A stretch of 64,000 nt of DNA from an uncultured Gemmatimonadales bacterium (GTDB lineage: Bacteria > Gemmatimonadota > Gemmatimonadetes > Palauibacterales > Palauibacteraceae), in the NCBI GenBank assembly GCA_963783385.1, contig CAWANJ010000009.1, forward strand, positions 896,410-960,409, written 5' to 3'. Under the pieces are notes generated by a model. The model had not been told where the DNA came from, did not search any database, and saw nothing but the letters and a program-made list of their open reading frames with translations. Both the position numbers and the translations under genes were made by a program. Each line of letters begins with the position of its first letter. The stretch's first letter is position 1. Positions 13,426 through 27,811 of this stretch are shown here, piece by piece.

Positions 13426-13560
13426 TCGGACCGACCGGGAGCCCGGGCTGTACAGACGGTGCTGGCCCCTGTTCACTTGTGGCCGGATCAGACCCGCCGC
13501 GGTGGCGGCGAAGCACGCCGCGCGGCGGACAGACGTTCCATCACACAGCGGCCACGAGCC

Positions 13561-15714
13561 ATGAGCGACCACAACCCAGACCTCCCTCGACTCCCGGAGC
13601 CGATCTCCGGCCTCCGGGAGATCGCCATGAACCTCTCGTGGCGCTGGAATCCGCGCGCCCGATATCTGTTCCGGAGGCTGGACCGGCCGCTGTGGCACCG
13701 GACCCGACACAATCCGGTCGCCATCCTCCGCGAGGTCGATCCGGCGCGCCTCGCGCGCCTGGCCGAGGACGTCGACTTCCGCCGCCTGCACGACGAGGTG
13801 CTGGCCGACTGCCGACAGGAGGACTCCCGCGCGGGCACCTGGATGGCGGCCGAGCACCCCGACTTCGGGGACCGCCCGGTGGCCTATTTCTGCGCCGAGT
13901 TCGGGCTCCACAACTCGGTCCCGATCTACTCCGGCGGCCTCGGCGTGCTGGCGGGCGACCACTGCAAGACCGCCTCGGACCTCGGCCTGCCCCTCGTGGG
14001 CGTGGGGCTGCTGTACGTGAAGGGGTACTTCGACCAGACCATCCGGCTGGACGGGTGGCAGGAGGACACGGAGGCGGCCTTCGACCCGGCCTCCACCCCG
14101 CTCGTGCCGGTCCCCGGCCGTGACGGCGACCGGAGGGTGGCGCGGCTCGAGATCAACGGCCACGACCTCGCCATCGGGGCCTGGAAGCTGCGGGTCGGCC
14201 GGGTGCCGATCTACCTCCTGGACACGGACCTGGAGGAGAACCGGCCGGAGGACCGCCAGCTGGCCAGTCGGCTGTACCCGGGCGGCCGCCTGGAGCGACT
14301 CCAGCAGGAGTGGATTCTGGGCGCGGGCGGGGTCCGGGTGCTGCGTGCCGTGGGCGTGGAGCCCGTGGCGTGGCACGCGAACGAGGGCCACGCGGCGTTC
14401 ATGCTGCTGGAGCGCGTGCGCGAGCGCATGGAGCGTGGCTCCACCTGGGAGGAGGCCGTCGCGCACGTGCGCGCTTCGAGCGTGTTCACCACCCACACCC
14501 CCGTGCCGGCGGGCCACGACATCTTCCCCCTCGAGCAGGTCGAGGCCTGCGCCGCCCGGCTCCTGGACGCGCCGGGCATGAGCACATCCCGCCTGGCCGA
14601 GGTGGGCCGCGGCCTGGAGGGCCCTGCGGGCTTCCACATGACGGCCCTCGCCATCCGCCTCTCCGGCGGCCTCAACGGGGTGTCGGAAACGCACGGACGG
14701 GTGACACGCCGGATGTGGCACGCCCTGTGGCCCGACCGCGCCGTGGAGGACGTCCCTGTCGGGCACATCACGAACGGCGTGCACCTGTCGACCTGGATGT
14801 CCCATTCCCTCATGTCGCTCCTGGACGGACACCTCGGCGCGGGATGGGTGCACCGGATCGCCGACCCGCGGCTGTGGGAGGCGATCCGCGACCTGGACGA
14901 CGAGGGGCTGTGGCGCGTGCACCGGCGGCGCAAGGAGACTCTGCTCGCCTTCGTGCGCGAGCGGGCCCGCCACCGGTGGGCCGAGCACTGGGGCGACAGC
15001 GGCCACCTCGTCGGCGCCGGCACCCTCCTCGCCCCCGACGCGCTCACGATCGGCTTCGCGCGTCGCTTCGCGGAGTACAAGCGCGCCGACCTCCTCTTCC
15101 GGGACGCGGACCGGCTGCGCCGGCTGGTGACCGACCCGCACCGGCCCGTTCAGGTGGTGTTCGCGGGCAAGGCCCACCCGGCGGACGACCAGGGGAAGCG
15201 CATCCTGCAGCGCGTGTACGAGGCGGCCCGCGATCCCGGGTTCGAGGGACGCATCGCCTTCCTCGAGGACTACGAGCTCCACATGGCGCACCGGCTCGTG
15301 CAGGGGGTGGACCTGTGGCTCAACCTCCCCCGCCCTCCCCTCGAGGCCTGCGGAACGAGCGGCATGAAGGCTGCGCTGAACGCAGTGCCCCAGCTCGGCA
15401 CGTGCGACGGATGGTGGGCCGAGGGCTACGAGGGCTCGAACGGCTGGCAGATCCCCCCCGCACCGGAGGAGGAGGACGTCGACGCGTGGGACGCACGGCA
15501 CCTGTACGAGATCCTCGAAGAGAGGGTCGTGCCGCTGTACTACGAGGGCGAGCGCCATGCCGCGCCCCGCGGCTGGGTCGCGGTCATGAAGGAGGCCCTC
15601 CGCATCGGCGGGAGCCGGTTCACCGCGCGCCGGATGCTGCGCGAGTACGTGTCGGACTACTATCTCCCCGCCCGCAGAGGGGCGCTCTCGGGCGCCCCGG
15701 TCGAAGCCGGGTGA
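13561..15714 (+). CDS. glgP: alpha-glucan (glycogen) phosphorylase, GT35
   Basis: ATG at 13561. N-terminus LPEPISGLREIAMNLSWRWN plus EFGLHNSVPIYSGGLGVLAGDH..., and the PLP-site region TSGMKAALNA (K = pyridoxal-phosphate lysine). The ORF-track start at 13459 is too far upstream. Confidence 0.85.
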   Translation: MSDHNPDLPRLPEPISGLREIAMNLSWRWNPRARYLFRRLDRPLWHRTRHNPVAILREVDPARLARLAEDVDFRRLHDEVLADCRQEDSRAGTWMAAEHPDFGDRPVAYFCAEFGLHNSVPIYSGGLGVLAGDHCKTASDLGLPLVGVGLLYVKGYFDQTIRLDGWQEDTEAAFDPASTPLVPVPGRDGDRRVARLEINGHDLAIGAWKLRVGRVPIYLLDTDLEENRPEDRQLASRLYPGGRLERLQQEWILGAGGVRVLRAVGVEPVAWHANEGHAAFMLLERVRERMERGSTWEEAVAHVRASSVFTTHTPVPAGHDIFPLEQVEACAARLLDAPGMSTSRLAEVGRGLEGPAGFHMTALAIRLSGGLNGVSETHGRVTRRMWHALWPDRAVEDVPVGHITNGVHLSTWMSHSLMSLLDGHLGAGWVHRIADPRLWEAIRDLDDEGLWRVHRRRKETLLAFVRERARHRWAEHWGDSGHLVGAGTLLAPDALTIGFARRFAEYKRADLLFRDADRLRRLVTDPHRPVQVVFAGKAHPADDQGKRILQRVYEAARDPGFEGRIAFLEDYELHMAHRLVQGVDLWLNLPRPPLEACGTSGMKAALNAVPQLGTCDGWWAEGYEGSNGWQIPPAPEEEDVDAWDARHLYEILEERVVPLYYEGERHAAPRGWVAVMKEALRIGGSRFTARRMLREYVSDYYLPARRGALSGAPVEAG

Positions 15715-15718
15715 CCGC

Positions 15719-17182
15719 GTGAGGCCGGCTCCGCGCGTCGTCCACCTGGTCGCGGAGTACTGGCCCTACGCTCAGACGGGCGGCCTGGCCGAGGCGGTGC
15801 GCGGCCTCGCCGTCCACCAGGCCCGGTCGGGGATGGAGGTCACCGTCGTCCTGCCCCTGTACCGCGGAGTGCGCGAGGGGCCGGCCACCCTGGAGCCGGT
15901 GGGCCCGGCCGCCGAGCTCTCCCTCGGCGGCGAACAGCGGACCGTCCGGGTGTGGCACGCCTCGGGCGCCTCGGTCGAGCCCGGCCCGGAGGTCCTGTTC
16001 GTCGAGCACGACCCCTTCTTCGATCGCGACGGGCTGTACGGGGACGGAGGCGCGGACTACCCCGACAACCCGCTCCGCTTCGCGCTGTTCGGACGCGCCG
16101 TCGCCGAGCGCATCGTCGCCCCGAAGGCGGCGGAGCCGGGCCGGGAGCCGGTAGTCGTCCACATCCACGACTGGCACGCCGCCCCGGCCCTGCTCTACCT
16201 GCCCGCCGGCACGGGGCCGGGCCGCGCGGCCCGCGTGCTGACCGTCCACAACGCCGCCTTCCAGGGCCGCTTCGGCATCGACCTCGAGCCGGAGCTCTCC
16301 CTCCCCGGGGACGGCGACGTCCACGGGACCCTGGAGTGGGACGGCGAGCTCAACTTCCTCAAGGCCGCCCTCGTCCTGGCCGACGTGGTCACGACGGTGA
16401 GCCCCACGCACGCCACCGAGCTGTGCACCGAGGAGGGGGGCTTCGGACTCGATCCGATGTTCCGCGAGCTGGGGGACCGGCTGATCGGGATCCTCAACGG
16501 GATCGACACCGAGCTGTGGGACCCCGCCGACGACGAGTTCGTCCCGCCACCCTTCGTCTTCGACGCGGACGACCCTTCGGGGAAGCTCCGGGCCAAGGAG
16601 GCGCTGCAGCGAGCGGCGGGGCTCCCCGTCCGGCCGGAGGTCCCGCTGTTCGGCATGGCGGCCCGACTGGCGCGCCAGAAGGGCATCGACCTCCTGCTCG
16701 AGGGTCGTTGCCTGGAGCGGGCTCCTGCCCAGTTCATCCTCCTCGGGAGCGGCGACCGGTGGTACGAGGAGAACCTGGTGGCCCGCGCCCGGCCCGACCG
16801 GGTGGTCGTGGACGCTCTGTTCAGCGAACGCAAGGAGCACGAGCTGCTCGCCGCCGCCGATTCGCTCCTCATGCCATCCCTGTACGAGCCCTGCGGCCTC
16901 ACGCAGATGCGCGCCCAGCGCTACGGCGCCCTGCCGGTGGCGCGCCGGGTCGGAGGGCTGGCCGACACGATCGAGGACGGCGTGACGGGCTTCCTGTTCG
17001 GGGCCTTCGAGCCCGGGGCCCTGGACGACGCCGTGGACCGGGCCATCCAGGCTTACGGCGACGCGGCCGGGTGGGCTGCCATGCGCCGGACGGCCATGCA
17101 CCGGCCGTTCGGTTGGTCGGAACCGGCGGCCGCCTACGCGGCGTTGTACGGTCGGGCGCTGGCACGACGCGGAGGCGCCTGA
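15719..17182 (+). CDS. glgA: glycogen synthase (ADP-glucose type, GT5)
   Basis: GTG start 4 nt after the glgP stop. Motifs HLVAEYWPYAQTGGLAE (KxGGL variant), HIHDWHAA and LYEPCGL. Confidence 0.85.
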   Translation: MRPAPRVVHLVAEYWPYAQTGGLAEAVRGLAVHQARSGMEVTVVLPLYRGVREGPATLEPVGPAAELSLGGEQRTVRVWHASGASVEPGPEVLFVEHDPFFDRDGLYGDGGADYPDNPLRFALFGRAVAERIVAPKAAEPGREPVVVHIHDWHAAPALLYLPAGTGPGRAARVLTVHNAAFQGRFGIDLEPELSLPGDGDVHGTLEWDGELNFLKAALVLADVVTTVSPTHATELCTEEGGFGLDPMFRELGDRLIGILNGIDTELWDPADDEFVPPPFVFDADDPSGKLRAKEALQRAAGLPVRPEVPLFGMAARLARQKGIDLLLEGRCLERAPAQFILLGSGDRWYEENLVARARPDRVVVDALFSERKEHELLAAADSLLMPSLYEPCGLTQMRAQRYGALPVARRVGGLADTIEDGVTGFLFGAFEPGALDDAVDRAIQAYGDAAGWAAMRRTAMHRPFGWSEPAAAYAALYGRALARRGGA

Positions 17183-17300: not shown

Positions 17301-17954
17301 ATGGCCCGGCACGACGCGCGCACCCAGTATCGTGTGGCCCTGGCGGCCGGCCTCGTCGGCTCGGTCGTCATCCACGGGCTGCTGCTCCTGTTTGCCCCGG
17401 CCTTGCCCATCGGCAACGCCGTCGCGCGGGCGAGCGCCCTGCAGGTGGTCGACATCCCGCCGGCCCCCACCCCCGCCCCGCCGGAGGCGCAGGTCCCCGA
17501 GGAGCCGGCCCCCATCCCCACGCCGGCCATGCCGGTGGCCGCGGCCCTGGACGAGCCGCCCGACGCGCCCCAGCTGATCCCCTACGAGATCGCCCCCAAG
17601 CTCGAGAACCCCGCCGAGGTCCAGCGCATCCTCCAGGACCTGTATCCGGCCGAGTACCGGGACCAGAGGATCGGGGGCGTGGTCGTCCTGTGGCTGTACA
17701 TCGACACGGAGGGGAACGTGGCCCGCGTGCTGGTGCGGGCCCCCAGCGGCCACGCGGGCTTCGACGAGGCCGCCCAGGCGGTCGCGCACCGGATGGCGTT
17801 CCGCCCCGCCTACATCCACGGCCATCCCGTCGGCGTGTGGGTCTCCCAGGGGATCCGCTTCACCGTGCGTCAGACGGCCGACACCAACGCCCTCCGGTCC
17901 GTCCCGCACCAGAGCCCGGTGGCCTCGAACCGGACCGGAGGTCACGGGCCCTAG
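17301..17954 (+). CDS. TonB C-terminal-domain protein (energy transducer TonB-like)
   Basis: One N-terminal TM helix, a Pro-rich linker (PPAPTPAPPEAQVPEEPAPIPTP) and a TonB-C-like domain (YPAEYRDQRIGGVVVLWLYIDTEGNV...). Confidence 0.65.
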   Translation: MARHDARTQYRVALAAGLVGSVVIHGLLLLFAPALPIGNAVARASALQVVDIPPAPTPAPPEAQVPEEPAPIPTPAMPVAAALDEPPDAPQLIPYEIAPKLENPAEVQRILQDLYPAEYRDQRIGGVVVLWLYIDTEGNVARVLVRAPSGHAGFDEAAQAVAHRMAFRPAYIHGHPVGVWVSQGIRFTVRQTADTNALRSVPHQSPVASNRTGGHGP

Positions 17955-18400
17955 CCTTCCGCCCGCGCCTCGACCTCCTGTCGGCGGCGGCGGTCGAGCC
18001 GCCTCCAGCGGGACAGCCGCACGGCCACGTGCCACCCGAACAGGGCGGCGCCTACCACCTCCAGGACCCTTCCGGCGAGCACCGCCCACCCGGCTCCGGC
18101 CAGGGCACCGGCGGCCGCGCAGGCGACCCCGGACGCCACCCCGGCCGCCCCCGCACCGGCGGCCCGGGGCGCGGGACGCCGCCCGCCGGCGCGCGGCAGG
18201 ATCCAGTAGGCCACGCCCAGGGCCAGCTGCACCAGCCAGCCCACGGCGAGCAGCTCCACGTGGACCGGGACGAGACGGACGAGGCCTCCGGTCGCCGACG
18301 GGTCCAGCGGGGGGACGGCCAGGAGCGCCGCCCCCAGGAGCGCGCCCAGGACGAGACACACGAGCGACGCGCGCACGGCCCACACGGTCAGCCTGGGCAC
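17951..18400 (-). CDS. small polytopic membrane protein, paralog of 18402..18797 (family uncertain)
   Basis: 149 aa with about four TM helices. Carries the motif VHVELLAVGWLVQLALGVAYWILP, which is shared with the neighbouring small protein and appears twice in the large membrane protein 19880..21166. Confidence 0.5.
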   Translation of the reverse strand: MPRLTVWAVRASLVCLVLGALLGAALLAVPPLDPSATGGLVRLVPVHVELLAVGWLVQLALGVAYWILPRAGGRRPAPRAAGAGAAGVASGVACAAAGALAGAGWAVLAGRVLEVVGAALFGWHVAVRLSRWRRLDRRRRQEVEARAEG

Positions 18401-18401
18401 G

Positions 18402-18797
18402 TCAGCTCCCGCGAACGCGCGGCCACAGGACGGCGGCGAAGGTGAAGAGCGCGGCCGCCTGCGTCACGGCCGACAGGACGAGCAGCGTTCCCCACGGCGC
18501 ACCGCCCCACGCGGCCCGGGAGGGCTCCGCGACCACCCGCATCCCCAGCCCGCCGTACAGCAGCGCGTACACGATCCACAGGGGCGCGTCGCGCCCCCGC
18601 GAGGGGAACAGCCAGTGGGCCACCCCCACGACCAGGCCCGTGAGCCAGCCCACGACCAGGAGATGCATCCTCACCGGCTCCAGGGCCGGAATGCGCGGGC
18701 CGACGCCTCCGGGCAGCGCGCCCAGGACGCCGGCCAGCAGGCCCGCGGCCAGGCAGGCGAGCGCCGTGCGCACGAAGGCCCGGCTGACGCGCGGCAC
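18402..18797 (-). CDS. small polytopic membrane protein, paralog of 17951..18400
   Basis: 131 aa carrying MHLLVVGWLTGLVVGVAHWLFP. It lies immediately downstream of the DUF2249 gene. Confidence 0.5.
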   Translation of the reverse strand: MPRVSRAFVRTALACLAAGLLAGVLGALPGGVGPRIPALEPVRMHLLVVGWLTGLVVGVAHWLFPSRGRDAPLWIVYALLYGGLGMRVVAEPSRAAWGGAPWGTLLVLSAVTQAAALFTFAAVLWPRVRGS

Positions 18798-18803
18798 GGC
18801 CGA

Positions 18804-19499
18804 CTAGGAGGCCGGGAGCACGGGGAGGACGGCGACCCAGACCCGCTCGTCCGCCCGGTAGGAGCGGTAGGACGACGCGTCGAAGCGATCCGCCCGCTCG
18901 GCGCACATCTCGTAGTACAGGGGCTTCGGGTCGTGGTCGTTCACGATCGTGAGGGCCTGGCCGGGCCCGAGCGCGGCGAAGCGCTCGTGGATGGTGGCAT
19001 GCTTGGCCGGCCCGTCCAGCCTGCGCACGTCCAGCAGATAGGGCCCCTGCAGCGCGCCTTCCTCCTGGACCGGGCGGTCGGGCCGTCCGCTCGGCTCCCG
19101 CGTCGCGCGCGCGGAGGCCGGCTCCCGGAAGGCCCCGCCGCAGCGATCGTCGGTGCCGCGAGCCTCTCCCTCGTCGGTCTCGAGCTCCGCCGCCGCGCCC
19201 TCCTCGTCGCCCGCTCGATGGAACCACACCCGCCAGTCGTCCGGCGCCAGCCGCTCCGCCCGGGCGCTGAACCCGCGCTCGGCCAGTACGGCGTACAGCG
19301 GCACGGGCTCGAACGGAGCGCGCAGGCACAGCACGTGGCCCGCGGGCACGCGGCCGGCGTGCTCGAGGATGGTGGCCAGGGGCTCCTCGCCGCGGGCCAG
19401 GATCGGTCGCACGTCCAGGTCGTGGACGAGCGCCTCGGGGACCGCCTCCGGCGCGGAGCGGCCCTCCGGGTCGGCGTTACGGATCGAGAACAGCTTCAT
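18804..19499 (-). CDS. DUF2249 domain protein (two repeats)
   Basis: Two DUF2249-like halves (LDVRPILARGEEP...HVLCLRAPFEPVPLY; LDVRRLDGP...ALTIVNDHDPKPLYY) joined by an acidic linker. Confidence 0.7.
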   Translation of the reverse strand: MKLFSIRNADPEGRSAPEAVPEALVHDLDVRPILARGEEPLATILEHAGRVPAGHVLCLRAPFEPVPLYAVLAERGFSARAERLAPDDWRVWFHRAGDEEGAAAELETDEGEARGTDDRCGGAFREPASARATREPSGRPDRPVQEEGALQGPYLLDVRRLDGPAKHATIHERFAALGPGQALTIVNDHDPKPLYYEMCAERADRFDASSYRSYRADERVWVAVLPVLPAS

Positions 19500-19571
19500 G
19501 GTGCACCTCGGTCTTCGGAGTCGCGTTCGGAGTCGTGGTTCGGACTCGTGGGTCCGCCGGGCCGGTGGCGC

Positions 19572-19883
19572 TCAGCCCCAGCCACGGATCATGTCGGGGT
19601 GCCAGGCCGGCTCGGCCGTGTAGCACAGCTCCACCCGGCCCACCTGGGGCAGGGCCTCGAGCGTGGCCCGCATGGCCCGCTCCAGGTGCGCGGCCAGGGG
19701 GCATCCCGGCGTGGTGAACGTGTGGACGACGCGCACCCCTTCGCCGGTCCACTCGATGCCGTACACGAGCCCCAGCCGCACGACGTCCAGCCCCACCTCG
19801 GGGTCCACCACCCGCCGCAGGGCCGCCGCGATCCCGGCCGCGCCGGGGTGCACGACGAAGGCCGGCCCCGCCGGCCCGTTCAC
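19572..19883 (-). CDS. DUF59/MIP18-family Fe-S assembly-related protein
   Basis: GTG start (rc 19881-19883) overlapping the upstream stop. Contains VVDPEVGLDVVRLGLVY...TTPGCP, typical of DUF59. Confidence 0.7.
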   Translation of the reverse strand: MNGPAGPAFVVHPGAAGIAAALRRVVDPEVGLDVVRLGLVYGIEWTGEGVRVVHTFTTPGCPLAAHLERAMRATLEALPQVGRVELCYTAEPAWHPDMIRGWG

Positions 19884-21166
19884 GCCGGCCTCCGCCGCGC
19901 CACGCCGGCGAGCTGCACGGCCTGGAGGAGGGCGCCGCACGCCAGGCTCGCCGCCGCGGCGCGCGTGACGGCGGCCGAACCGGCCAGGATCGCCCCCACG
20001 AGAGCGGCGGCGCCCGCCGCCTGGAGCCCGGCGGCCACGAGGGCCGGGCCGCGCGCGAACAGCTCGGCCACCATCGGCACCGGCCGCTCCGAGGCCACCG
20101 GGCCGAACCGGTGATGCCAGACCAGGAACGGCAGGATCTTGTACTGGTGCCCCGCCACGAACAGGCCGAGGCCTCCCACCACCAGGGCCGCCACGTACGC
20201 GGTGGCCAGGCGCGGTGAGGTGCCGGGCACCAGCATGGCGGGCACCCCCAGGACGAGCGCCACGGCCAGCAGGGCCAGGGCCACCGCCACCAGCCGCATG
20301 CCCGGATCGAGGGAGGGCCGGCGCCGGGCCCGGAAGTGGAGGGCGGCCTGCCACAGGAAGGCGGCGGCGCCCGCGGCCAGCAGACCGCCGCCCGCCGGCA
20401 TGGCGGCCAGGGGGAGCACGTGGTGCGCGAGCGCCAGGACGCCCGCCCCCAGCGCCAGCAGCCAGGCCGCCGCCCGGCCGGGCCCCTCCGTGACCCCGTG
20501 GCTGAGCAGGAACATGGGCAGCAGCCTCCGGGAGACGCCCACGATCACCAGGAGCACCCAGCCCGCCGCGGCCACGTGCAGGTGGAGCGCGATGAGCAGG
20601 AAGCGGCCCGGGCCCAGGAAGCCGGTGCGCAGGTTGAGCGCCAGGAGCGCCCCCAGCGACACGGCCACGACCAGGAACCCGTCCGCCGCGGCCAGGCAGC
20701 CCCACGTGGTGTCCCGGCGGGCGGTGCTCCGCAAGGCGGCGGCCAGGTGCGCGGCGAACAGCAGGAGCCCGGTCCCGAGCGTCCCCGCTCCGATCACGAC
20801 CAGCGCCGTCCTGCCGGCCGCGAGCCCGAAGACGAACAGGCCGACCCCGACCACGTGCAGCGCGAAGGTCACGTGCGCCAGGCGCGGCCACGGGAACCGT
20901 CCGCCGAGCGCCACGGGCAGCAGCTGGTAGAGGGCCCCCATGATCGAGGTCGTGATCCAGCCCAGCGTGAACAGGTGGGCCACCGCCGCCACCCGCGGGT
21001 CGGCGTAGCCGCCGCGGGCCAGCGACGGCGCCACCACCCACAGCCCGATCCCGCCGGCCGCGTAGAACCCGAGGGCGGCCAGCAGGTGCTCGGCCGGGAC
21101 CCGGAGCGGAACCCCGGGCGCCGGGGCCGCGACGGCCTCCGGGGCGGGGGCCGCGATGGGGTCCAT
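19880..21166 (-). CDS. NnrS-like / heme-copper-oxidase-like polytopic membrane protein (family assignment tentative)
   Basis: ATG (rc 21164-21166). About 428 aa with at least ten TM helices and conserved His-containing helices (AHLFTLGWITTSIMGALYQLLP; LHLHVAAAGWVLLVIVGVSRRLLP; VWHHRFGP). The upstream part of ORF 19880..21466 is non-proteinaceous. Confidence 0.55.
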   Translation of the reverse strand: MDPIAAPAPEAVAAPAPGVPLRVPAEHLLAALGFYAAGGIGLWVVAPSLARGGYADPRVAAVAHLFTLGWITTSIMGALYQLLPVALGGRFPWPRLAHVTFALHVVGVGLFVFGLAAGRTALVVIGAGTLGTGLLLFAAHLAAALRSTARRDTTWGCLAAADGFLVVAVSLGALLALNLRTGFLGPGRFLLIALHLHVAAAGWVLLVIVGVSRRLLPMFLLSHGVTEGPGRAAAWLLALGAGVLALAHHVLPLAAMPAGGGLLAAGAAAFLWQAALHFRARRRPSLDPGMRLVAVALALLAVALVLGVPAMLVPGTSPRLATAYVAALVVGGLGLFVAGHQYKILPFLVWHHRFGPVASERPVPMVAELFARGPALVAAGLQAAGAAALVGAILAGSAAVTRAAAASLACGALLQAVQLAGVARRRPA

Positions 21167-21490
21167 CTCAGGCGCCGGCGTCACCGGGACGCAGGGCCCG
21201 GAGCAGCGCCTCGAGATCGAGGTCGTGCAGGCGGGCGGCCTCCCGCAGCGGCAGATCGCCGCCACAGCACAGGTCGAGACCGTGCCCGAGGAGGACCTCC
21301 CGGGCGCCGGGGAGTCGCCGCACGAGCTCGTGCAGGGTGAGCCCCGAGAGCTCGGTGCCGGAAGTCGAGACGGGTTGCATGGCGGATCTCCTCGTCGCCG
21401 GGCATGTGACCTCGGGCCGCCCGGTGGTGCCCGGCCTGCTCGCCGGTCGGTCCCTGCCTCCGACACCTACGATGGGACGGGCGGGAGGAG

Positions 21491-21525
21491 TTGTCAAGAT
21501 TGTCATCATGTTTATATTGTAAAAT
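21491..21525 (+). promoter_or_regulatory. AT-rich promoter/operator between divergent operons (TTGTCA-aga-TTGTCA; TATATT / TGtAAAAT)
   Basis: This is the only AT-rich stretch in a roughly 10-kb span. There is a direct repeat TTGTCA (21491-96, 21500-05). The -35 TTGTCA plus 16 nt plus -10 TATATT (21513-18) fit sigma70. An extended -10-like TGTAAAAT sits at 21518-25. Confidence 0.35.
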
Positions 21526-21644
21526 GCGGCTGGCCCCGTCGCCGTGCTATCGTTGGCGGGTATCACGAGCACCTTCAGCAACGGGCAGGCACGAACGTGG
21601 ACGAAGCCGACACTCAGCGACCCGAGGAGCTCCTGGCTCCCGGC

Positions 21645-22301
21645 ATGAGCGATACGCGCCGCCGGCTCCTCCTGCGGCTCAAGCGGCACGGGGCCATGAC
21701 GCTGGCCACGATCTCGGAGGCGTTCGACCTCTCTCCCGAGACGCTGCGCAGCCACCTGCGCGACCTCGAAGCGGAGGGGTTGGTGGAGCGGGCCGGGGTC
21801 CGGAGGCACGGGCGGGGCCGGCCCGAGGTGATCTACCAGCTGGCCCCCGCCGCCGAACCGCTGTTCCCGCAGCGCGAGGGCGAGGTGCTGGGCGAGCTCG
21901 CCGCCTTCCTGGTCCGCAGCGGCCGTCAGGACCTCATCCAGGGCTTCTTCGACGAGCGCATGGCCACGCGCCGCACCGAGGCGCTGCGGCGCGTGGAGGG
22001 GCTCGAGGGACGGGCCCGCATGGAGGAGATCGCCGACCTCCTCACCGAAGAGGGCTTCATGGCGGAGGTGGAGACCTCCGCCGACGGAGAAGCCGAGCTC
22101 CGCCTGTGTCACTGCCCGATCCGGGAGCTGGTGGACGTGTCGTCCGTCCCGTGCCGGGCCGAGATCGGCCTGGTCCGCGAGCTCCTGGGCGAGCGCTTGG
22201 CCCGGAACAGCTACATCCCGAACGGCGAGCCCGCCTGCAGCTACTCGCCCGGGCCCCGGGATGGAGCGAGGAACGAGCCGGCCGCGGAGGCCGCCGGCTA
22301 G
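21645..22301 (+). CDS. winged-HTH (ArsR-like) transcriptional regulator with Cys-rich C-terminal sensor region
   Basis: HTH region RRLLLRLKRHGAMTLATISEAFDLSPETLRSHLRDLEAEGLVER. The C-terminus has four Cys (LCHCPI...PCRAE...ACSY), suggesting a metal or redox sensor. GTG 21596 is a possible alternative start. Confidence 0.65.
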   Translation: MSDTRRRLLLRLKRHGAMTLATISEAFDLSPETLRSHLRDLEAEGLVERAGVRRHGRGRPEVIYQLAPAAEPLFPQREGEVLGELAAFLVRSGRQDLIQGFFDERMATRRTEALRRVEGLEGRARMEEIADLLTEEGFMAEVETSADGEAELRLCHCPIRELVDVSSVPCRAEIGLVRELLGERLARNSYIPNGEPACSYSPGPRDGARNEPAAEAAG

Positions 22302-22423: not shown

Positions 22424-23569
22424 GTGGACATCCCGACGGCCCTGGCGGCCATCCTCCGGCACACGGTCGGCATGGCCTGGAAGATCGCGTGGGGCCTGGC
22501 GCTCGGCTTCATGATCTCCGGAGCGATCCAGGCGTTCGTGTCTCGGGAGGAGATCGCCCGCCACCTGGGCCGGCCGACGCTCCGGGCCCTCGCCCTGGCC
22601 AGCTTCTTCGGGTTCGCGTCCTCCTCCTGCTCCTACGCCGCCGCGGCCATGAGCAAGACCCTGTTCCAGAAGGGGTCGCACATCGTCAACGCCACGGCCT
22701 TCCTGTTCGCCTCCACCAACCTCGTGATCGAGATCGGCCTCATCATCTGGGTGCTGCTGGGATGGCAGTTCGTCCTCGCCGAGTTCGTCGGGGGGATCCT
22801 GCTCATCGTGGTGATGGCCGTCCTCCTGCGCTGGTTCGCGCCGGCCGGGGTGTTCGAGGAGGCCCGCCGGCACCTGGACGAGGCCGGAGGCGGAGGCCAC
22901 GAGCATCACCGCCACGGCGGGACGCTGCCGGCCTCCGCGCTCCTCACCCGGCGAGGGCTGGCGGCCACGGGACGCTACCTGTCGACGGACGTGCGCATGG
23001 TGGGCAGGGACATCGTCCTCGGGCTGGTCATCGCGGGCACCCTGGCGGCGCTGGTCCCGCAGGAGTGGTGGCGGTCCCTGTTCCTGACGGCGGGATCGGG
23101 CGGCGCCGTCCACCCGGGATTCTGGGTGAGCGTGGAGAACGCGGTGGTGGGACCGGTAATCGCCATCGTCTCGTTCGTGTGCTCGGTGGGCAACATCCCG
23201 ATGGCGTCGGTGCTGTGGGCGGGAGGGATCTCCTTCGGCGGGGTCGTGGCGTTCATCTTCGCCGACCTGGTCACGATCCCGATGGTGCTGGTGTACCGGC
23301 GCTACTACGGCTGGAAGCCGGCGCTTGTGTATGCCGGCTACCTCCTGGCGACCATGGTGGTCACGGCGCTGATCGTGGACGGCCTGTTCCGGCTCACGGG
23401 GATGGCGCCCGAGGTGCCGGTCGCGGCCCGCAGGGGCCTCCAGCACGTGGACTACTTCGCGTGGGACTACACGGCGTGGCTGAACCTGGTGTTCGTGCCG
23501 CTGGCCGCGGGCCTGTGGTGGCTGGGGTCACGCCGCGCCGAGGTGGGAGAGCACCGGCACGGCGGGTAG
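22424..23569 (+). CDS. DUF318/UPF0718-type permease (ArsP-like), operonic with the regulator
   Basis: GTG start. About eight TM helices, with an SSCSY motif in a TM helix as in ArsP/DUF318 permeases, and a His-rich loop (GGGGHEHHRHGG). Confidence 0.7.
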   Translation: MDIPTALAAILRHTVGMAWKIAWGLALGFMISGAIQAFVSREEIARHLGRPTLRALALASFFGFASSSCSYAAAAMSKTLFQKGSHIVNATAFLFASTNLVIEIGLIIWVLLGWQFVLAEFVGGILLIVVMAVLLRWFAPAGVFEEARRHLDEAGGGGHEHHRHGGTLPASALLTRRGLAATGRYLSTDVRMVGRDIVLGLVIAGTLAALVPQEWWRSLFLTAGSGGAVHPGFWVSVENAVVGPVIAIVSFVCSVGNIPMASVLWAGGISFGGVVAFIFADLVTIPMVLVYRRYYGWKPALVYAGYLLATMVVTALIVDGLFRLTGMAPEVPVAARRGLQHVDYFAWDYTAWLNLVFVPLAAGLWWLGSRRAEVGEHRHGG

Positions 23570-24142: not shown

Positions 24143-24398
24143 CTTGCGACTCCTCGGACTCGTGTCTCGCGTCCCCGGCATCCCCTGCCCTCGCGCCGGC
24201 CGCCGGAGCCATCCGGCCCCGTTGCGCGGAAGCTAGGGCAGGCCGTCCCGAGCGGCTGTCCTGCACTTCCCGTTTCGAAGTGTGGGGGGATTCTCGCGGC
24301 GCGCCGGCCGCATCGTGGAGCGGGCCCGGCGCCGCTGGCAGCCAGCGCCCGCGACGCCGGCCGCGTCCCCCGCGACGGCCGGCCGCGTCCTTCGCGCT

Positions 24399-24434
24399 GA
24401 CGTCCGCGTCGACGTCCGCGTTGACGTCCGCGCC
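24399..24434. repeat. tandem 12-mer x3 (GACGTCCGCGTC / GACGTCCGCGTT / GACGTCCGCGCC) upstream of the BNR gene
   Basis: Seen directly in the sequence. Each unit contains GACGTC. It lies 55 nt upstream of the ATG at 24489. Confidence 0.5.
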
Positions 24435-24488
24435 GCCGGCCGGCATCGTGCGGCCGCGAAGGATGATCAACCCCACCAGGAGCCGAGC

Positions 24489-27400
24489 ATGTCCCGTCCC
24501 GTCGACGCCGCCCCGGGCCGCGCGCCCCGCCGTCCGCTGGCCCTCGCCGCGGCGCTCGCGGCGGTACTGGCCGTGCCCGCCGCCCTCGCCGCGGCGGCCC
24601 CGCTCCTCGCCGCTCCGCCCGCGGCGGCCGACACGACCTTCGGCGCCCTGCGCTGGCGCTCGATCGGTCCGTTCGAGGGAGGACGCGTCGAGGCGGTCAC
24701 CGGCGTGCCGGGCCAGCCGAGCACCTTCTACTTCGGCGCCGTGGTCGGGGGCGTGTGGAAGACGACCGACGCGGGCGGCCACTGGCGGCCGGTGTTCGAC
24801 GGGCAGCCGATCGCCTCGATCGGCGCCATCGCGGTGGCGCCCTCCGACCCCAACGTGATCTACGTGGGCACCGGCGAGCCCGACCCGCGCGGCGACATCT
24901 CGTTCGGCGACGGCGTCTACAAGTCCACCGACGGCGGCAAGACGTGGACGAACGTCGGCCTGCGCGACACGCGCCACATCGGCGACATCGTGGTCGATCC
25001 GCGCGACCCCGACGTGGTCTACGTGGCGGCGCTCGGCCACATGTTCGGCCCCAACGAGCAGCGCGGCGTGTTCCGCTCCACCGACGGCGGGAAGACGTGG
25101 GAGAAGGTCCTGTACCGGGACGAAAACACGGGCGCGGTCGACCTGTCGATCGACCCGAACAACCCGCGCGTCCTGTTCGCGGCGCTGTGGCAGGTTCGGC
25201 GCCGCCCGTGGCAGCTGGCGAACGGCGGGCCGGGCAGCGGCCTGTACGAGTCCACCGACGGCGGCTCCACCTGGACGCAGGTCCAGGGGCGCGGCCTCCC
25301 CTCGGGCACCCTGGGGCGGCTGTCCGTGTCGGTGTCGGGCGCCGACGGCGAGGTCGTCTACCTGCTGGTCAACCACAAGACGAAGGGCGGCCTGTACCGC
25401 TCCGACGACGGCGGGGCCACCTGGACGCTGGTGAACGACAGCCAGACGATCCAGCAGCGGCCGTGGTACTACTTCCGGGTGTACGCCGACCCGAAGGACC
25501 CGAACACGGTCTACGTGTGCAACTTCCTCTTCCACCGCTCGACCGACGGGGGCCGCACGTTCGGCACGATCCGGCTCCCGCACGTCGACAACCACGCCCT
25601 GTGGATCGACCCGTCGGACCCGAGCCGCATGATCGAGGGGAACGACGGCGGCGCCACGGTCACCCTGAACGGCGGCCGCGACTGGAGCTCGGAGTCCAAC
25701 CAGCCCACCGGCCAGTTCTACCACGTGAACGTCGACGACCGCTTCCCCTACTGGCTGTACGGGGCCCAGCAGGACCGCGGCACCATCGCCATCGCCAGCG
25801 CCTCCTACCGCGGCGGGATCACCGACAAGGACTGGTACAACGTGGGCGGCGGGGAGAGCAGCTACGTGCTGCCCCGGCCGGGCGACCCGAGCGTCGTGTA
25901 CGCGGGCTCCTACTTCGGCTACACCACCCGCATGGACGTGAGCACGGGGCAGACCCGGAACGTGAGCCCCTGGCCCCTGAACCCCGAGGGCGCGCCCGCC
26001 AAGGCGGTCAAGTACCGGTTCAGCTGGGTGTCGCCCACGGCGGTCGACCCGCGCCACCCGAACGTGGTGTACGCCGGCTCGCAGAAGCTGCTGAAGTCGA
26101 CCGATGAGGGGGCGAGCTGGACGGAGATCAGCCCCGACCTCACCCGGAACGACACCACGAAGCAGGTACGCTCGGGCGGGCCCGGTCACCTGGGACAACG
26201 TGGGGGCCGAGTACTACGACGTGATCTACACGATCGCCCTGTCGCCGAAGGCCGAGGGCGAGATCTGGGTGGGCTCGGACGACGGGCTGGTGCACCTGAC
26301 GCGCGACGGCGGGCAGCACTGGACGGACGTGACCCCGAAGGGCATGCCGACCTGGGCCAAGGTGAGCCTCATCGAGGCCTCGCCGCACGACCCGGCCACC
26401 GCGTACGCGGCCGTGGACGCCCACAAGGCGGACGACTTCACCCCGTACTTCTACCGCACGCACGACTACGGGCAGCACTGGACCCTGATCACCAGCGGGA
26501 TCCAGGCGCCCTCGTTCGCGCGCGCCATCCGCGAGGACCCGGTCCGCAAGGGCCTCCTGTACGCGGCCACCGAGCTGGGCGTGTACGTGTCCTTCGACGA
26601 CGGCGACCACTGGCGCTCGCTGCAGACCAACCTGCCCACGACCTCGGTGCGCGACCTGGCCGTCAAGGACGGCGACCTGGCCATCGCGACCCACGGCCGC
26701 GGCTTCTGGATCCTGGACGACCTGGCGCCGCTCCGGGGCTGGACGCCCGAGGTGGCCTCGGCGCCGCTGCACCTGTTCACCCCCGACACGGCCTACCGCA
26801 CCGAGGCGGCGGGCGGCCGCGTGTCGCCCGGCGAGGCGGCGGGCCAGAACCCGCCGCGCGGAGCCATCCTGGACTGGTCGCTGGCCTCGGCCGCGACCGA
26901 CTCGGTGCGGCTCGACATTGTGGACGGGAGCGGCGCGGTGATCCGGAGCTTCCGGCGCCCGCTGGAAGGTTCGGGCGGCTCCGCGGCGGGGTCGAGCGCC
27001 GGACGCGGCGGCGCGTCCGGCGGCCTCCCCGCCCACGCCGGCGTGAACCGCTTCGTGTGGAACCTGCGCTACGCCGGCGCCCCGCCTCTCCGGGTGCCGG
27101 GCGGCGCGGTGTTCGAGGCGGGCGGTCCGGCGGCGCCCCGCGCCTTGCCGGGCACCTACACGGTGCGGCTCACGGTGGACGGCCGCACCGAGACCGCGCC
27201 GCTGCAGGTGGCGCTCGACCCGCGCGTCGAGGCGAGCCCGGAGGACCTGCAGGCCCAGCTCGACCTCATGCTGAAGCTGCGCCAGGCGATGACGGACGAC
27301 CACGTCGCCTTCAACCGGATCGCCGGGGTGCGCGAGCAGCTGGGCGTGCTGGAGCGGCAGCTGGGGAGCGACGCGTCCCACGCCTCCGTGGTCGCCGCCG

Positions 27401-27717
27401 TGAAGAAGCTGGACGAGCGTGCCGACTCGACCGCGACGCAGCTGTTCCAGTTCCGGGCGAAGGTGCCCAAGGAGCTGTTCATGAACCACCCGGCCACCCT
27501 GAACGTGAAGCTGGCCTCGTTGCAGGGCTCGGTGGACGCGGCCGACGCGGCCCCCACCGCGCAGCAGGTGGACGTGTACGACCTGCTGCGGAAACGGCTG
27601 GACGACGTGCTGACCGAGTGGAACGAGATCCGCACCAAGGAGATCCCGGCGCTCAACGAGCAGCTGCGCGCGGCCGGGATCGGACCGGTGTTCGTGCCGG
27701 GGGGCGGCGGGGAGTAG
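24489..27717 (+). CDS. BNR/Asp-box repeat (sortilin/VPS10-like) secreted glycosidase-like protein, one frameshift near 26165-26180
   Basis: Signal peptide, then many S-x-D-x-G-x-T-W Asp-box repeats (STDGGKTW x5 and more). The N-terminal 560 aa are in frame 0. The C-terminal 515 aa (VTWDNVGAEYYDV...) continue in frame 1 (ORF 26104..27717). Confidence 0.7.
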
Positions 27718-27781
27718 GAGGCCGAGCGGGCGGAGGCTGGCCCGGGCCTCGGGTCGCGGCGACGCCTCCCTTCCCCGGCCC

Positions 27782-27811
27782 TTGACCGTGCGGCGAGATC
27801 GGGCGTAGATC
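27782..27811 (+). promoter_or_regulatory. candidate sigma70 promoter for the PD40 lipoprotein tandem (TTGACC-18-TAGATC)
   Basis: -35 TTGACC (27782-87) and -10 TAGATC (27806-11), about 105 nt upstream of ATG 27918. Confidence 0.3.

Follow-up and report, generated by a model that had tools for sequence, protein, structure and literature searches.

A tightly packed cluster of minus-strand genes from an uncultured Gemmatimonadales bacterium (GenBank assembly GCA_963783385.1, contig CAWANJ010000009.1, positions 896,410 to 960,409) raises the question of what its three membrane proteins are, one large and two small, and what they do in the company of small cytoplasmic proteins of the DUF59, DUF2249 and ScdA_N families. 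The cluster occupies positions 17951-21380 of the 64,000-nucleotide stretch of DNA that was analysed, hereafter the window, which has a G+C content of 73% and whose closest relatives are metagenome-assembled genomes of Gemmatimonadota (Candidatus Palauibacterales, Longimicrobiales). It holds six closely packed genes, on which the open reading frame (ORF) list and an independent gene call on the identical public contig agree; a preliminary description of the region had correctly recognized five of them as tightly packed genes of one strand, and had missed the sixth, which encodes the ScdA_N protein (Table 1). The large membrane protein is a 12-helix homolog of subunit I of the heme-copper oxidases (HCOs), built from three 4-helix units, and together with the two small membrane proteins, here called small1 and small2, it gives the operon three members of the HCO superfamily, none of which is an oxidase in the usual sense. 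What these three oxidase-like proteins are in structure and descent can be stated with high confidence.

Homologs of the large protein number 775 or more, and every one of them is labelled 'hypothetical'. The family-level counts given here refer to alignments of 60 sequences for the large family, 43 for small2 and 21 for small1. An AlphaFold (AF2) model of the large protein, computed with 60 homologs, contains 12 transmembrane (TM) helices at a predicted local distance difference test (pLDDT) score of 91.8 and a predicted template-modelling (pTM) score of 0.91, and when this model was compared with the PDB by Foldseek, all 38 top matches were subunit I of HCOs or of nitric oxide (NO) reductases (NORs). 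The best match is CcoN of the cbb3 oxidases (E 1e-6, TM-score 0.75/0.69, 13% identity), and CcoN, CoxA (aa3), CyoB (bo3) and NorB (cNOR) are all matched at E 1e-6 to 1e-4 with TM-scores of 0.6-0.75, bearing out the oxidase-like fold that had been suggested for this protein. At the level of sequence, hmmscan finds weak matches to COX1 (PF00115) in 41 of the 60 large-family members at E ≤ 1, the best of the eight members scored reaching 31.7 bits against a cut-off of 34.8. COX1 is the sole Pfam model that recurs across the large, small1 and small2 families, being matched by all 43 small2 relatives and, weakly, by 9 of the 21 small1 relatives. Among eight large-family proteins checked, seven match COX1, and in six of these the N-terminal unit aligns with COX1 positions 312-402, the TM9-11 region, so that each unit appears to resemble the last unit of the oxidases most.

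The division into units can be followed through a helix motif, H-x4-GW-x6-G-x5-LP, which had been described as occurring once in each small protein and at least twice in the large one. The strict form does occur twice in the large protein (residues 64 and 197), and neither small1 nor small2 contains an exact match: the copy in small1 ends in FP instead of LP, and in small2 the His stands two residues further upstream (H-x6-GW), with a Glu at the x4 position. Two His registers had been hidden under the single pattern, and it had gone unnoted that the large protein contains a third copy, which is degenerate and has a Tyr in place of the His; BLASTP sets this residue, Y324, opposite H47 of small2. 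Composition-matched shuffling of each protein recreates the core GW-x6-G-x5-[LFI]P in about 0.1% of cases. BLASTP further aligns small1 with small2 (E 6e-8), and small2 with three sites of the large protein that lie ~128 residues apart (E 6e-5, 0.015 and 1.0, the third being non-significant).

Comparison of family profiles by hhalign gives firmer values. The small1 and small2 families align over their full length with 99.9% probability (E 1.6e-31), which makes them paralogs, as had been proposed, and both align with the large family, small1 over large-protein residues 30-141 (82% probability, E 1e-5) and small2 over residues 152-279 (89% probability, E 2e-6). When each third of the large family is taken separately, small1 finds unit 1 at E 1.5e-6 and small2 finds unit 2 at E 2.5e-7, while the matches of the small families to unit 3 (E 0.002-0.02) are weak yet in register; controls with reversed sequences stayed at E ≥ 0.015 and a probability of ≤ 3%. 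Hidden Markov models of the small families also recover the large protein in most related loci. By sequence comparison, then, the earlier proposal that the small proteins are single repeat units of the large fold holds, and the large protein has three such units, not two.

Small1 and small2 are conserved and independent full-length genes, each of which corresponds to about one third of the large fold. In a search of the PDB, the small2 family profile matches cbb3 CcoN (E 0.014 and 0.029) over CcoN residues 322-415, which span TM9-12, and in the alignment the invariant His of small2 (H47) lines up with the first His of HvH in helix X, a heme b3 ligand. The AF2 model of small2 (pLDDT 90.6) shows a basic helix at the C-terminus in addition to four TM helices. 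A Foldseek search with the small2 monomer gave no significant E-value and showed only trends in TM-score; the best superpositions were on the MAPEG protein MGST2 (TM-score 0.57-0.66, Foldseek E 1.4 to 2.9), styrene oxide isomerase was also present, and the Pfam MAPEG model had no match among the 43 small2 relatives. MAPEG proteins and styrene oxide isomerase resemble the small proteins in being 4-TM subunits that form trimers, the small2 model superposing on MGST2 with a TM-score of about 0.6, but they are homotrimers of different chemistry, whereas here two specialised paralogs are paired, and the likeness comes with no significant sequence or Foldseek E-value. In styrene oxide isomerase, a 4-TM trimer, heme b is bound at the subunit interfaces via a single His (PMC11374702).

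Small2-type proteins make up 1744 representative clusters in public data, nearly all of 130-150 aa. One metagenomic protein of 413 aa (P0288) is a natural 12-TM fusion of three units with H-x-H-INLLGW in every unit; these units are close copies of the single-unit small protein, and P0288 appears to be a triple fusion of recent origin. Because each unit has its H-x-H, this protein connects the single units and the 12-TM proteins directly.

In the oxidases, the two His of helix X stand on opposite faces of the helix and ligate two different hemes. Small1 has its His in the second register only (R43-M-H45-LLVV-GW) and small2 in the first register only (H47-V-E49-LLAV-GW), and in the hhalign alignment H45 of small1 (H-x4-GW) falls two residues downstream of H47 of small2 (H-x6-GW). 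Both positions are occupied in 18 of the 25 motif-bearing small ORFs found near a large gene, which carry H-x-H (A-H-A-H-A...) and have no tandem partner. Tandem pairs follow another rule: in all seven examined, the window pair and six from unrelated contigs, the upstream gene has x-x-H and the downstream gene H-x-E/D/A, with gaps of 0-10 nt between them, and of the 144 top small2-type representatives 102 have H-x-E and 12 have H-x-D. The complementary His registers of the tandem pairs are a regularity that is possibly new.

The large family has a ligand set of its own. H64, H195, H197, Y324, Y342 and H352 are invariant (60/60), and H27, H223 and H249 (each 59/60), H248 (≥90%) and H340 (57/60) nearly so; H98 occurs in 52/60. 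Judged from helix boundaries and the positive-inside rule rather than from coordinates, H64, H195/197, the HH248/249 pair at the end of TM7 and Y324 would lie near the periplasmic side, and H27, H98, H223, H340 and H352 at the cytoplasmic face. Oxidases keep their hemes and CuB near the periplasmic side. Their canonical six-His set is incomplete in the large protein, which has the TM2 His, the TM6 His and the HH that closes TM7, with the H-x-H located in TM6 and Y324 in TM10.

Proteins of this general kind have a precedent. Pei, Li, Kinch and Grishin (2014, Protein Sci 23:1220) reportedly defined 'HCO homology' (HCOH) proteins, among which several 4-TM families are said to represent one 'evolutionary unit', most like oxidase TM9-12. 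The single-unit proteins were reportedly proposed to form homo- or heterotrimers, and 12-TM families including NnrS are said to have three units without the full oxidase ligand set; the contexts reportedly comprised DUF2249, denitrification and NO detoxification, and the oxidase core was reportedly likened to MAPEG trimers. We take the three membrane proteins of the operon to be of this HCOH kind. Small1 and small2 are 4-TM proteins with genes of their own and with similarity to oxidase TM9-12 that includes the helix X His, and the large protein has 12 TM helices in three units, each homologous to the single-unit proteins (unit 3 weakly). Most three-unit HCOH members were reportedly described with two conserved His, whereas in the present large family four His are invariant and five nearly so, together with an invariant Tyr. 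The repeat-unit finding is a rediscovery of a kind published in 2014, of which these proteins are new, unannotated examples. PMC11218638 cites Pei et al. 2014 for the DUF2249 link, and Ovchinnikov et al. 2015 (PMC4602095) refer to the same trimer analogy.

With cbb3 CcoN and the subunit I of other HCOs and NORs, the large protein shares the 12-TM pseudo-threefold fold (TM-score 0.75), His residues near the periplasmic end of TM2, of TM6 and at the end of TM7, and the H-x-H-x4-GW helix motif. It differs from them in its low identity (13-14%), in being about 40-100 residues shorter, in having no partner redox subunits, in its H-x-H in TM6 instead of TM10 and its Tyr in TM10, and in a Pfam match that is sub-threshold or missing.

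The cytoplasmic partners of these proteins point towards iron centres and nitrogen oxides. The DUF59 and DUF2249 domains named in the preliminary description are both confirmed by Pfam, at 62.3 bits against a gathering score of 23.5 and, over two domains, at 121.2 bits against a gathering score of 29.5, respectively, and the 70-residue ScdA_N protein weakly matches the N-terminal end of the RIC/YtfE models. The regulator encoded divergently from the operon matches the SufR model TIGR02702 over its full length (E 5.9e-19), with 68.6 bits against an equivalog cut-off of 178.8, and the four Cys of its C-H-C-x12-C-x27-C pattern are kept in 49-51 of 51 sequences. Mycobacterial SufR senses NO via a 4Fe-4S cluster, and the SufR class controls iron-sulphur (Fe-S) biogenesis (PMC8371249); the DUF59 protein SufT matures Fe-S proteins (PMC9045647); and proteins with DUF2249 either take part in nitrate respiration and denitrification or are induced under these conditions (PMC6282519, PMC11218638). 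The association of DUF2249 with nitrogen-oxide loci, stated in the earlier account, is supported by this literature as well as by related loci that contain RIC, Crp/Fnr and NirK-like genes. RIC/YtfE/ScdA, SufT, SufR and DrpA/DrpB (DUF2249) share with the operon the ScdA_N, DUF59, DUF2249 and Cys4 regulator domains and are all linked to NO damage, Fe-S repair or the control of denitrification; unlike RIC/YtfE/ScdA, the ScdA_N protein of the window is a stand-alone 70 aa without a hemerythrin domain. None of these accessory systems is known to act together with a membrane protein of the oxidase-like type.

A survey of 80 related loci, the majority from Gemmatimonadota and some belonging to Myxococcota, Gaiellales or Thermoleophilia, bears out the linkage of DUF59 and DUF2249 to the large gene. 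The operon is conserved across Gemmatimonadota and is also found in Myxococcota and Actinomycetota; a DUF59 gene follows the large gene in 76 loci and a DUF2249 gene lies downstream in 75, which makes the order large, DUF59, DUF2249 nearly universal (about 75 loci). Less constant are a SufR-like regulator beside the large gene (51 loci), an unknown protein of ~253 aa (44), an Mrp/ApbC Fe-S carrier ATPase with a DUF59 domain of its own (26), small single-unit genes (about 25), ScdA_N (17), a cupin (16), RIC, which combines ScdA_N and hemerythrin (12), CopD/DUF4149 (10) and Crp/Fnr (6). Neighbours in some related loci include NirK-like, NirV-like, Crp/Fnr and RIC proteins.

Two of the recurring neighbours are absent from the window. 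The Mrp/ApbC ATPase (for example L083:4268-5620, with an N-terminal DUF59 and a ParA match at E 2e-89) is encoded directly upstream of the large gene, often overlapping its start, in many Longimicrobiales and Gemmatimonadales. The ~253-aa protein, which has no Pfam match (L082:10881-11642), is encoded between DUF2249 genes in longer versions of the operon.

The tandem small pairs of other contigs have varied company. One (L086:1-6405) lies beside genes for a NirK-like multicopper protein, an FGE-sulfatase (NirV-like), SCO1, a cupredoxin, a RIC-DUF2249 fusion and DUF59, on a stretch that also encodes an unassigned 365-aa membrane protein with the motif HAVFVGF...GHAPIIFP. Another (L090:1681-5408) lies beside a NirK-like gene, Crp/Fnr and DUF423. 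DUF423 (YgdD) has itself been proposed to be oxidase-related. A third (L089:1-5411) stands directly downstream of ccoG-ccoH-ccoI-ccoS-like genes of cbb3 maturation, a hint that the assembly of oxidase cofactors, and not NO stress, may be the task of some pairs. Further pairs (L085, L087 and L088) stand alone.

The overall explanation that we favour, and regard as fairly probable, is that the HCO homologs act as heme proteins in NO or redox stress or in Fe-S upkeep. Since the conserved His predicted near the periplasmic end of each unit's second helix would occupy positions at which oxidases bind hemes, the large protein, small1 and small2 are most likely all b-type heme proteins. One or two hemes would be held in the large protein by H64 of TM2 and H195-x-H197 of TM6, close to Y324 of TM10 and HH248/249, which might supply a further ligand or bind a metal. 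Small1 and small2 most likely assemble as a trimer-like hetero-oligomer that mimics the oxidase core, in which the second-register His of small1 would meet the first-register His of small2 at the interface of the unlike subunits and sandwich a heme; the tandem pair would in this way split over two genes the role that H-x-H plays in its singleton relatives and in oxidase helix X. The His pattern of the tandem pairs suggests such a hetero-oligomer with a heme between unlike subunits, and the MAPEG-like topology, the complementary-His pairs and the triple fusion P0288 speak indirectly for the predicted trimeric assembly.

The ScdA_N, DUF59 and DUF2249 proteins, joined elsewhere by Mrp/ApbC and RIC, and the Cys4 regulator together point to a role against NO or redox damage to iron centres, in which NO sensing or turnover at a membrane heme could be coupled to the upkeep of Fe-S or other iron centres. 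Drawn as it is from the partners, this assignment of the operon to NO or redox stress is tentative, and we would not put it quite at even chances. A more far-reaching version, in which the tandem pairs are an 'unfused' oxidase core with a bis-His heme at the interface, and the large protein has an H-x-H/Tyr/HH centre unlike that of known oxidases and NO reductases and acts on NO or iron centres together with DUF59, DUF2249 and ScdA_N, is in its entirety improbable; if true, it would open the stepwise origin of the oxidase active site to experiment and assign a function to DUF2249 and to this branch of DUF59.

A number of results weigh against this picture. The large protein of the window has no Pfam match and does not reach the COX1 gathering score, and a search of PDB sequences with the large-family profile returned nothing even at E ≤ 10, so that a comparison of folds was needed instead. 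When the units of the large family are compared directly with one another by hhalign, the similarity is weak (E 0.006, 0.004 and 1.6e-4), with unit 3 barely detectable, and the repeat is established via the small families as intermediates. The facing of the His pairs would follow from helix register and topology only, and a two-gene set cannot evenly fill a symmetric trimer. The genomic context of the tandem pairs is not uniform: those of L085, L087 and L088 have no NO-related neighbours, and that of L089 lies by ccoGHIS. The genes examined on either side of the operon (about 13.5-27.8 kb of the window) included no nir or nor gene.

The main rival is a module for metal trafficking or cofactor maturation (iron, copper, Fe-S) in place of NO chemistry, with the His binding metal, or heme in transit. 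Five conserved His clustered on the cytoplasmic side would suit such a task, as would neighbours such as DUF59, Mrp/ApbC, the FTR1 iron permease, CopD/DUF4149 and SCO1, the ArsP_1 permease of the window, the tandem pair that follows the ccoGHIS genes of cbb3 copper and heme maturation, and a regulator whose class controls Fe-S biogenesis (PMC8371249). The best-conserved residues, however, occupy the heme-ligand positions of the oxidase fold, neighbours such as RIC, Crp/Fnr and NirK-like genes speak for nitrogen oxides, and FTR1, CopD and SCO1 are found in a minority of loci only. We consider this rival unlikely, though it is the one to be taken most seriously.

Less likely still is that the large protein is the working catalytic subunit of a novel O2 or NO reductase with a binuclear centre of heme and a non-heme metal. 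It has the full 12-TM oxidase fold, an invariant H-x-H, a near-invariant HH at the periplasmic end of TM7, where oxidases have two CuB ligands, and an invariant Tyr nearby, and the spacing of 51 residues between H197 and H248 is close to the 50 of cbb3 CcoN. Against these features stand the placement of the H-x-H in TM6 and not TM10, the Tyr at the TM10 position of the catalytic-heme ligand, and the score of the window protein below the COX1 gathering threshold. The operon encodes no subunit II, cytochrome c or quinol-site partner, its partners being small cytoplasmic Fe-S- and RIC-type proteins, and no electron-entry partner (subunit II, CcoO/P, NorC) was found in the operon or in the flanks examined. 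Taken together, a new reductase is a decidedly poor prospect.

Orthology to NnrS, in a standard NnrS nitrosative-stress locus, is a minor alternative and very improbable. The preliminary description had called the large protein NnrS-like, and at the level of the superfamily the label is valid: NnrS, too, is a membrane protein with 12 TM helices that binds heme and is linked to NO stress, and Pei et al. 2014 reportedly place it among the three-unit HCO homologs. Single members of the small families do touch it, one small1 relative matching the NnrS Pfam model at E 5e-6 (1 of 21) and one singleton small protein matching the last third of NnrS at E 0.099. As a family label the name does not stand after hmmscan searches that covered 124 relatives besides the window protein. 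The NnrS model (PF05940) is matched by 0 of the 60 large-family members and 0 of the 43 small2 relatives even at E ≤ 1, while COX1 is matched by 41 and 43, respectively; an NCBIfam scan of the large protein gave no family match, NnrS included; and the structural neighbours are oxidase and NOR subunits, with no NnrS structure among the Foldseek matches. NnrS is at most a distant superfamily cousin of the large protein.

That the small genes are decaying or split fragments of a broken 12-TM gene, a notion that rests on two adjacent and co-oriented genes being homologous to units of a 12-TM protein, is effectively refuted by conservation and has next to no chance, because both genes have a start codon of their own and encode a complete 4-TM unit with a confidently predicted fold, the two families are separately conserved, the pair is found in the same order in 7 of 7 unrelated genomic contexts, which come from different lineages, and a third fragment is missing.

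The favoured reading, in which HCO homologs serve as heme proteins in stress or Fe-S upkeep, concerns a large unannotated set, with at least 775 large-family proteins and more than 1700 small-type clusters, and with neither a Pfam nor an NCBIfam model for the large protein or small1. The operon is a good target for defining the roles of DUF2249 and of oxidase relatives in NO and redox stress. The complementary His registers predict how a heme site can form between 4-helix subunits, and such a site bears on the evolution of the oxidase and NO-reductase core by triplication.

Table 1. Features of the operon and of the adjoining divergent region; positions are those of the window.
Feature	Position	Strand	Evidence and remarks
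ScdA_N/DUF542 small cytoplasmic protein, 70 aa, CCGG motif	21168-21380	-	Pfam ScdA_N E 2.7e-12; first gene of the operon; independently called
Large membrane protein, 428 aa, 12-TM	19880-21166	-	no Pfam or NCBIfam match
Unit 1 motif, TM2: H64-LFTL-GW-x6-G-x5-LP, His in second (i+2) register	20915-20977	-	H64 60/60
Unit 2 motif, TM6: H195-L-H197-VAAA-GW-x6-G-x5-LP, H-x-H	20516-20584	-	H195, H197 60/60
Unit 3 degenerate motif, TM10: Y324-x6-GG-x6-G-H340-QYKI-LP346, Tyr for His	20129-20197	-	BLASTP, conservation
DUF59/FeS_assembly_P (PF01883), 103 aa, TTPGCP cysteine, GTG start	19572-19883	-	Pfam E 5.1e-17
Double DUF2249 (PF10006), 231 aa	18804-19499	-	Pfam E 1.6e-35, two stretches
small1, 131 aa, 4-TM single-unit oxidase homolog	18402-18797	-	no Pfam or NCBIfam match
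small2, 149 aa, 4-TM single-unit oxidase homolog	17951-18400	-	Pfam COX1 E 4.9e-7, sub-threshold
SufR-like winged-helix regulator, divergent	21597-22301	+	HTH_20 and related Pfam matches; C-H-C-x12-C-x27-C
AT-rich island, 35-40 bp (TTGTCAAGATTGTCATCATGTTTATATTGTAAAAT; TTGTCA-AGA-TTGTCA...TATATT), putative promoter plus operator	21489-21526	.	divergent intergenic region

In the order of transcription, the junctions between the six genes are a 1-nt gap, a 4-nt GTGA overlap, in which the stop of the large gene coincides with the GTG start of the DUF59 gene, a 72-nt gap between the DUF59 and double-DUF2249 genes, a 6-nt gap and a 1-nt gap. A TonB_C gene is convergent with small2. Rfam and tRNA scans of the window found no RNA genes.

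Between the operon and the regulator gene, the AT-rich island holds the only sigma-70-like match within positions 17800-21700, where shuffled sequences lead one to expect 0.0, and its −35 and −10 elements are oriented for the regulator gene. In the two closest genomes the island is almost unchanged, whereas the sequence on either side of it diverges; it probably combines a promoter with an operator. No inverted repeat was found in the divergent intergenic region, and a search for k-mers enriched upstream of 50 regulator genes returned a TTGACA-like −35 element only.

Directly after the regulator gene comes that of an ArsP_1 permease (22424-23569, plus strand; E 4.8e-65), which has weak similarity to the SO_0444 Cu/Zn efflux protein and to SaoE; the permease accompanies the cluster in 1 of the 80 related loci, so it is probably outside the conserved module. 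Further out, the flanks at 13459-17182 and 24282-27785, both on the plus strand, look like housekeeping regions when their translations are judged by eye, with ORFs that resemble a glycogen phosphorylase, a glycogen synthase and a large BNR/sortilin-repeat protein.

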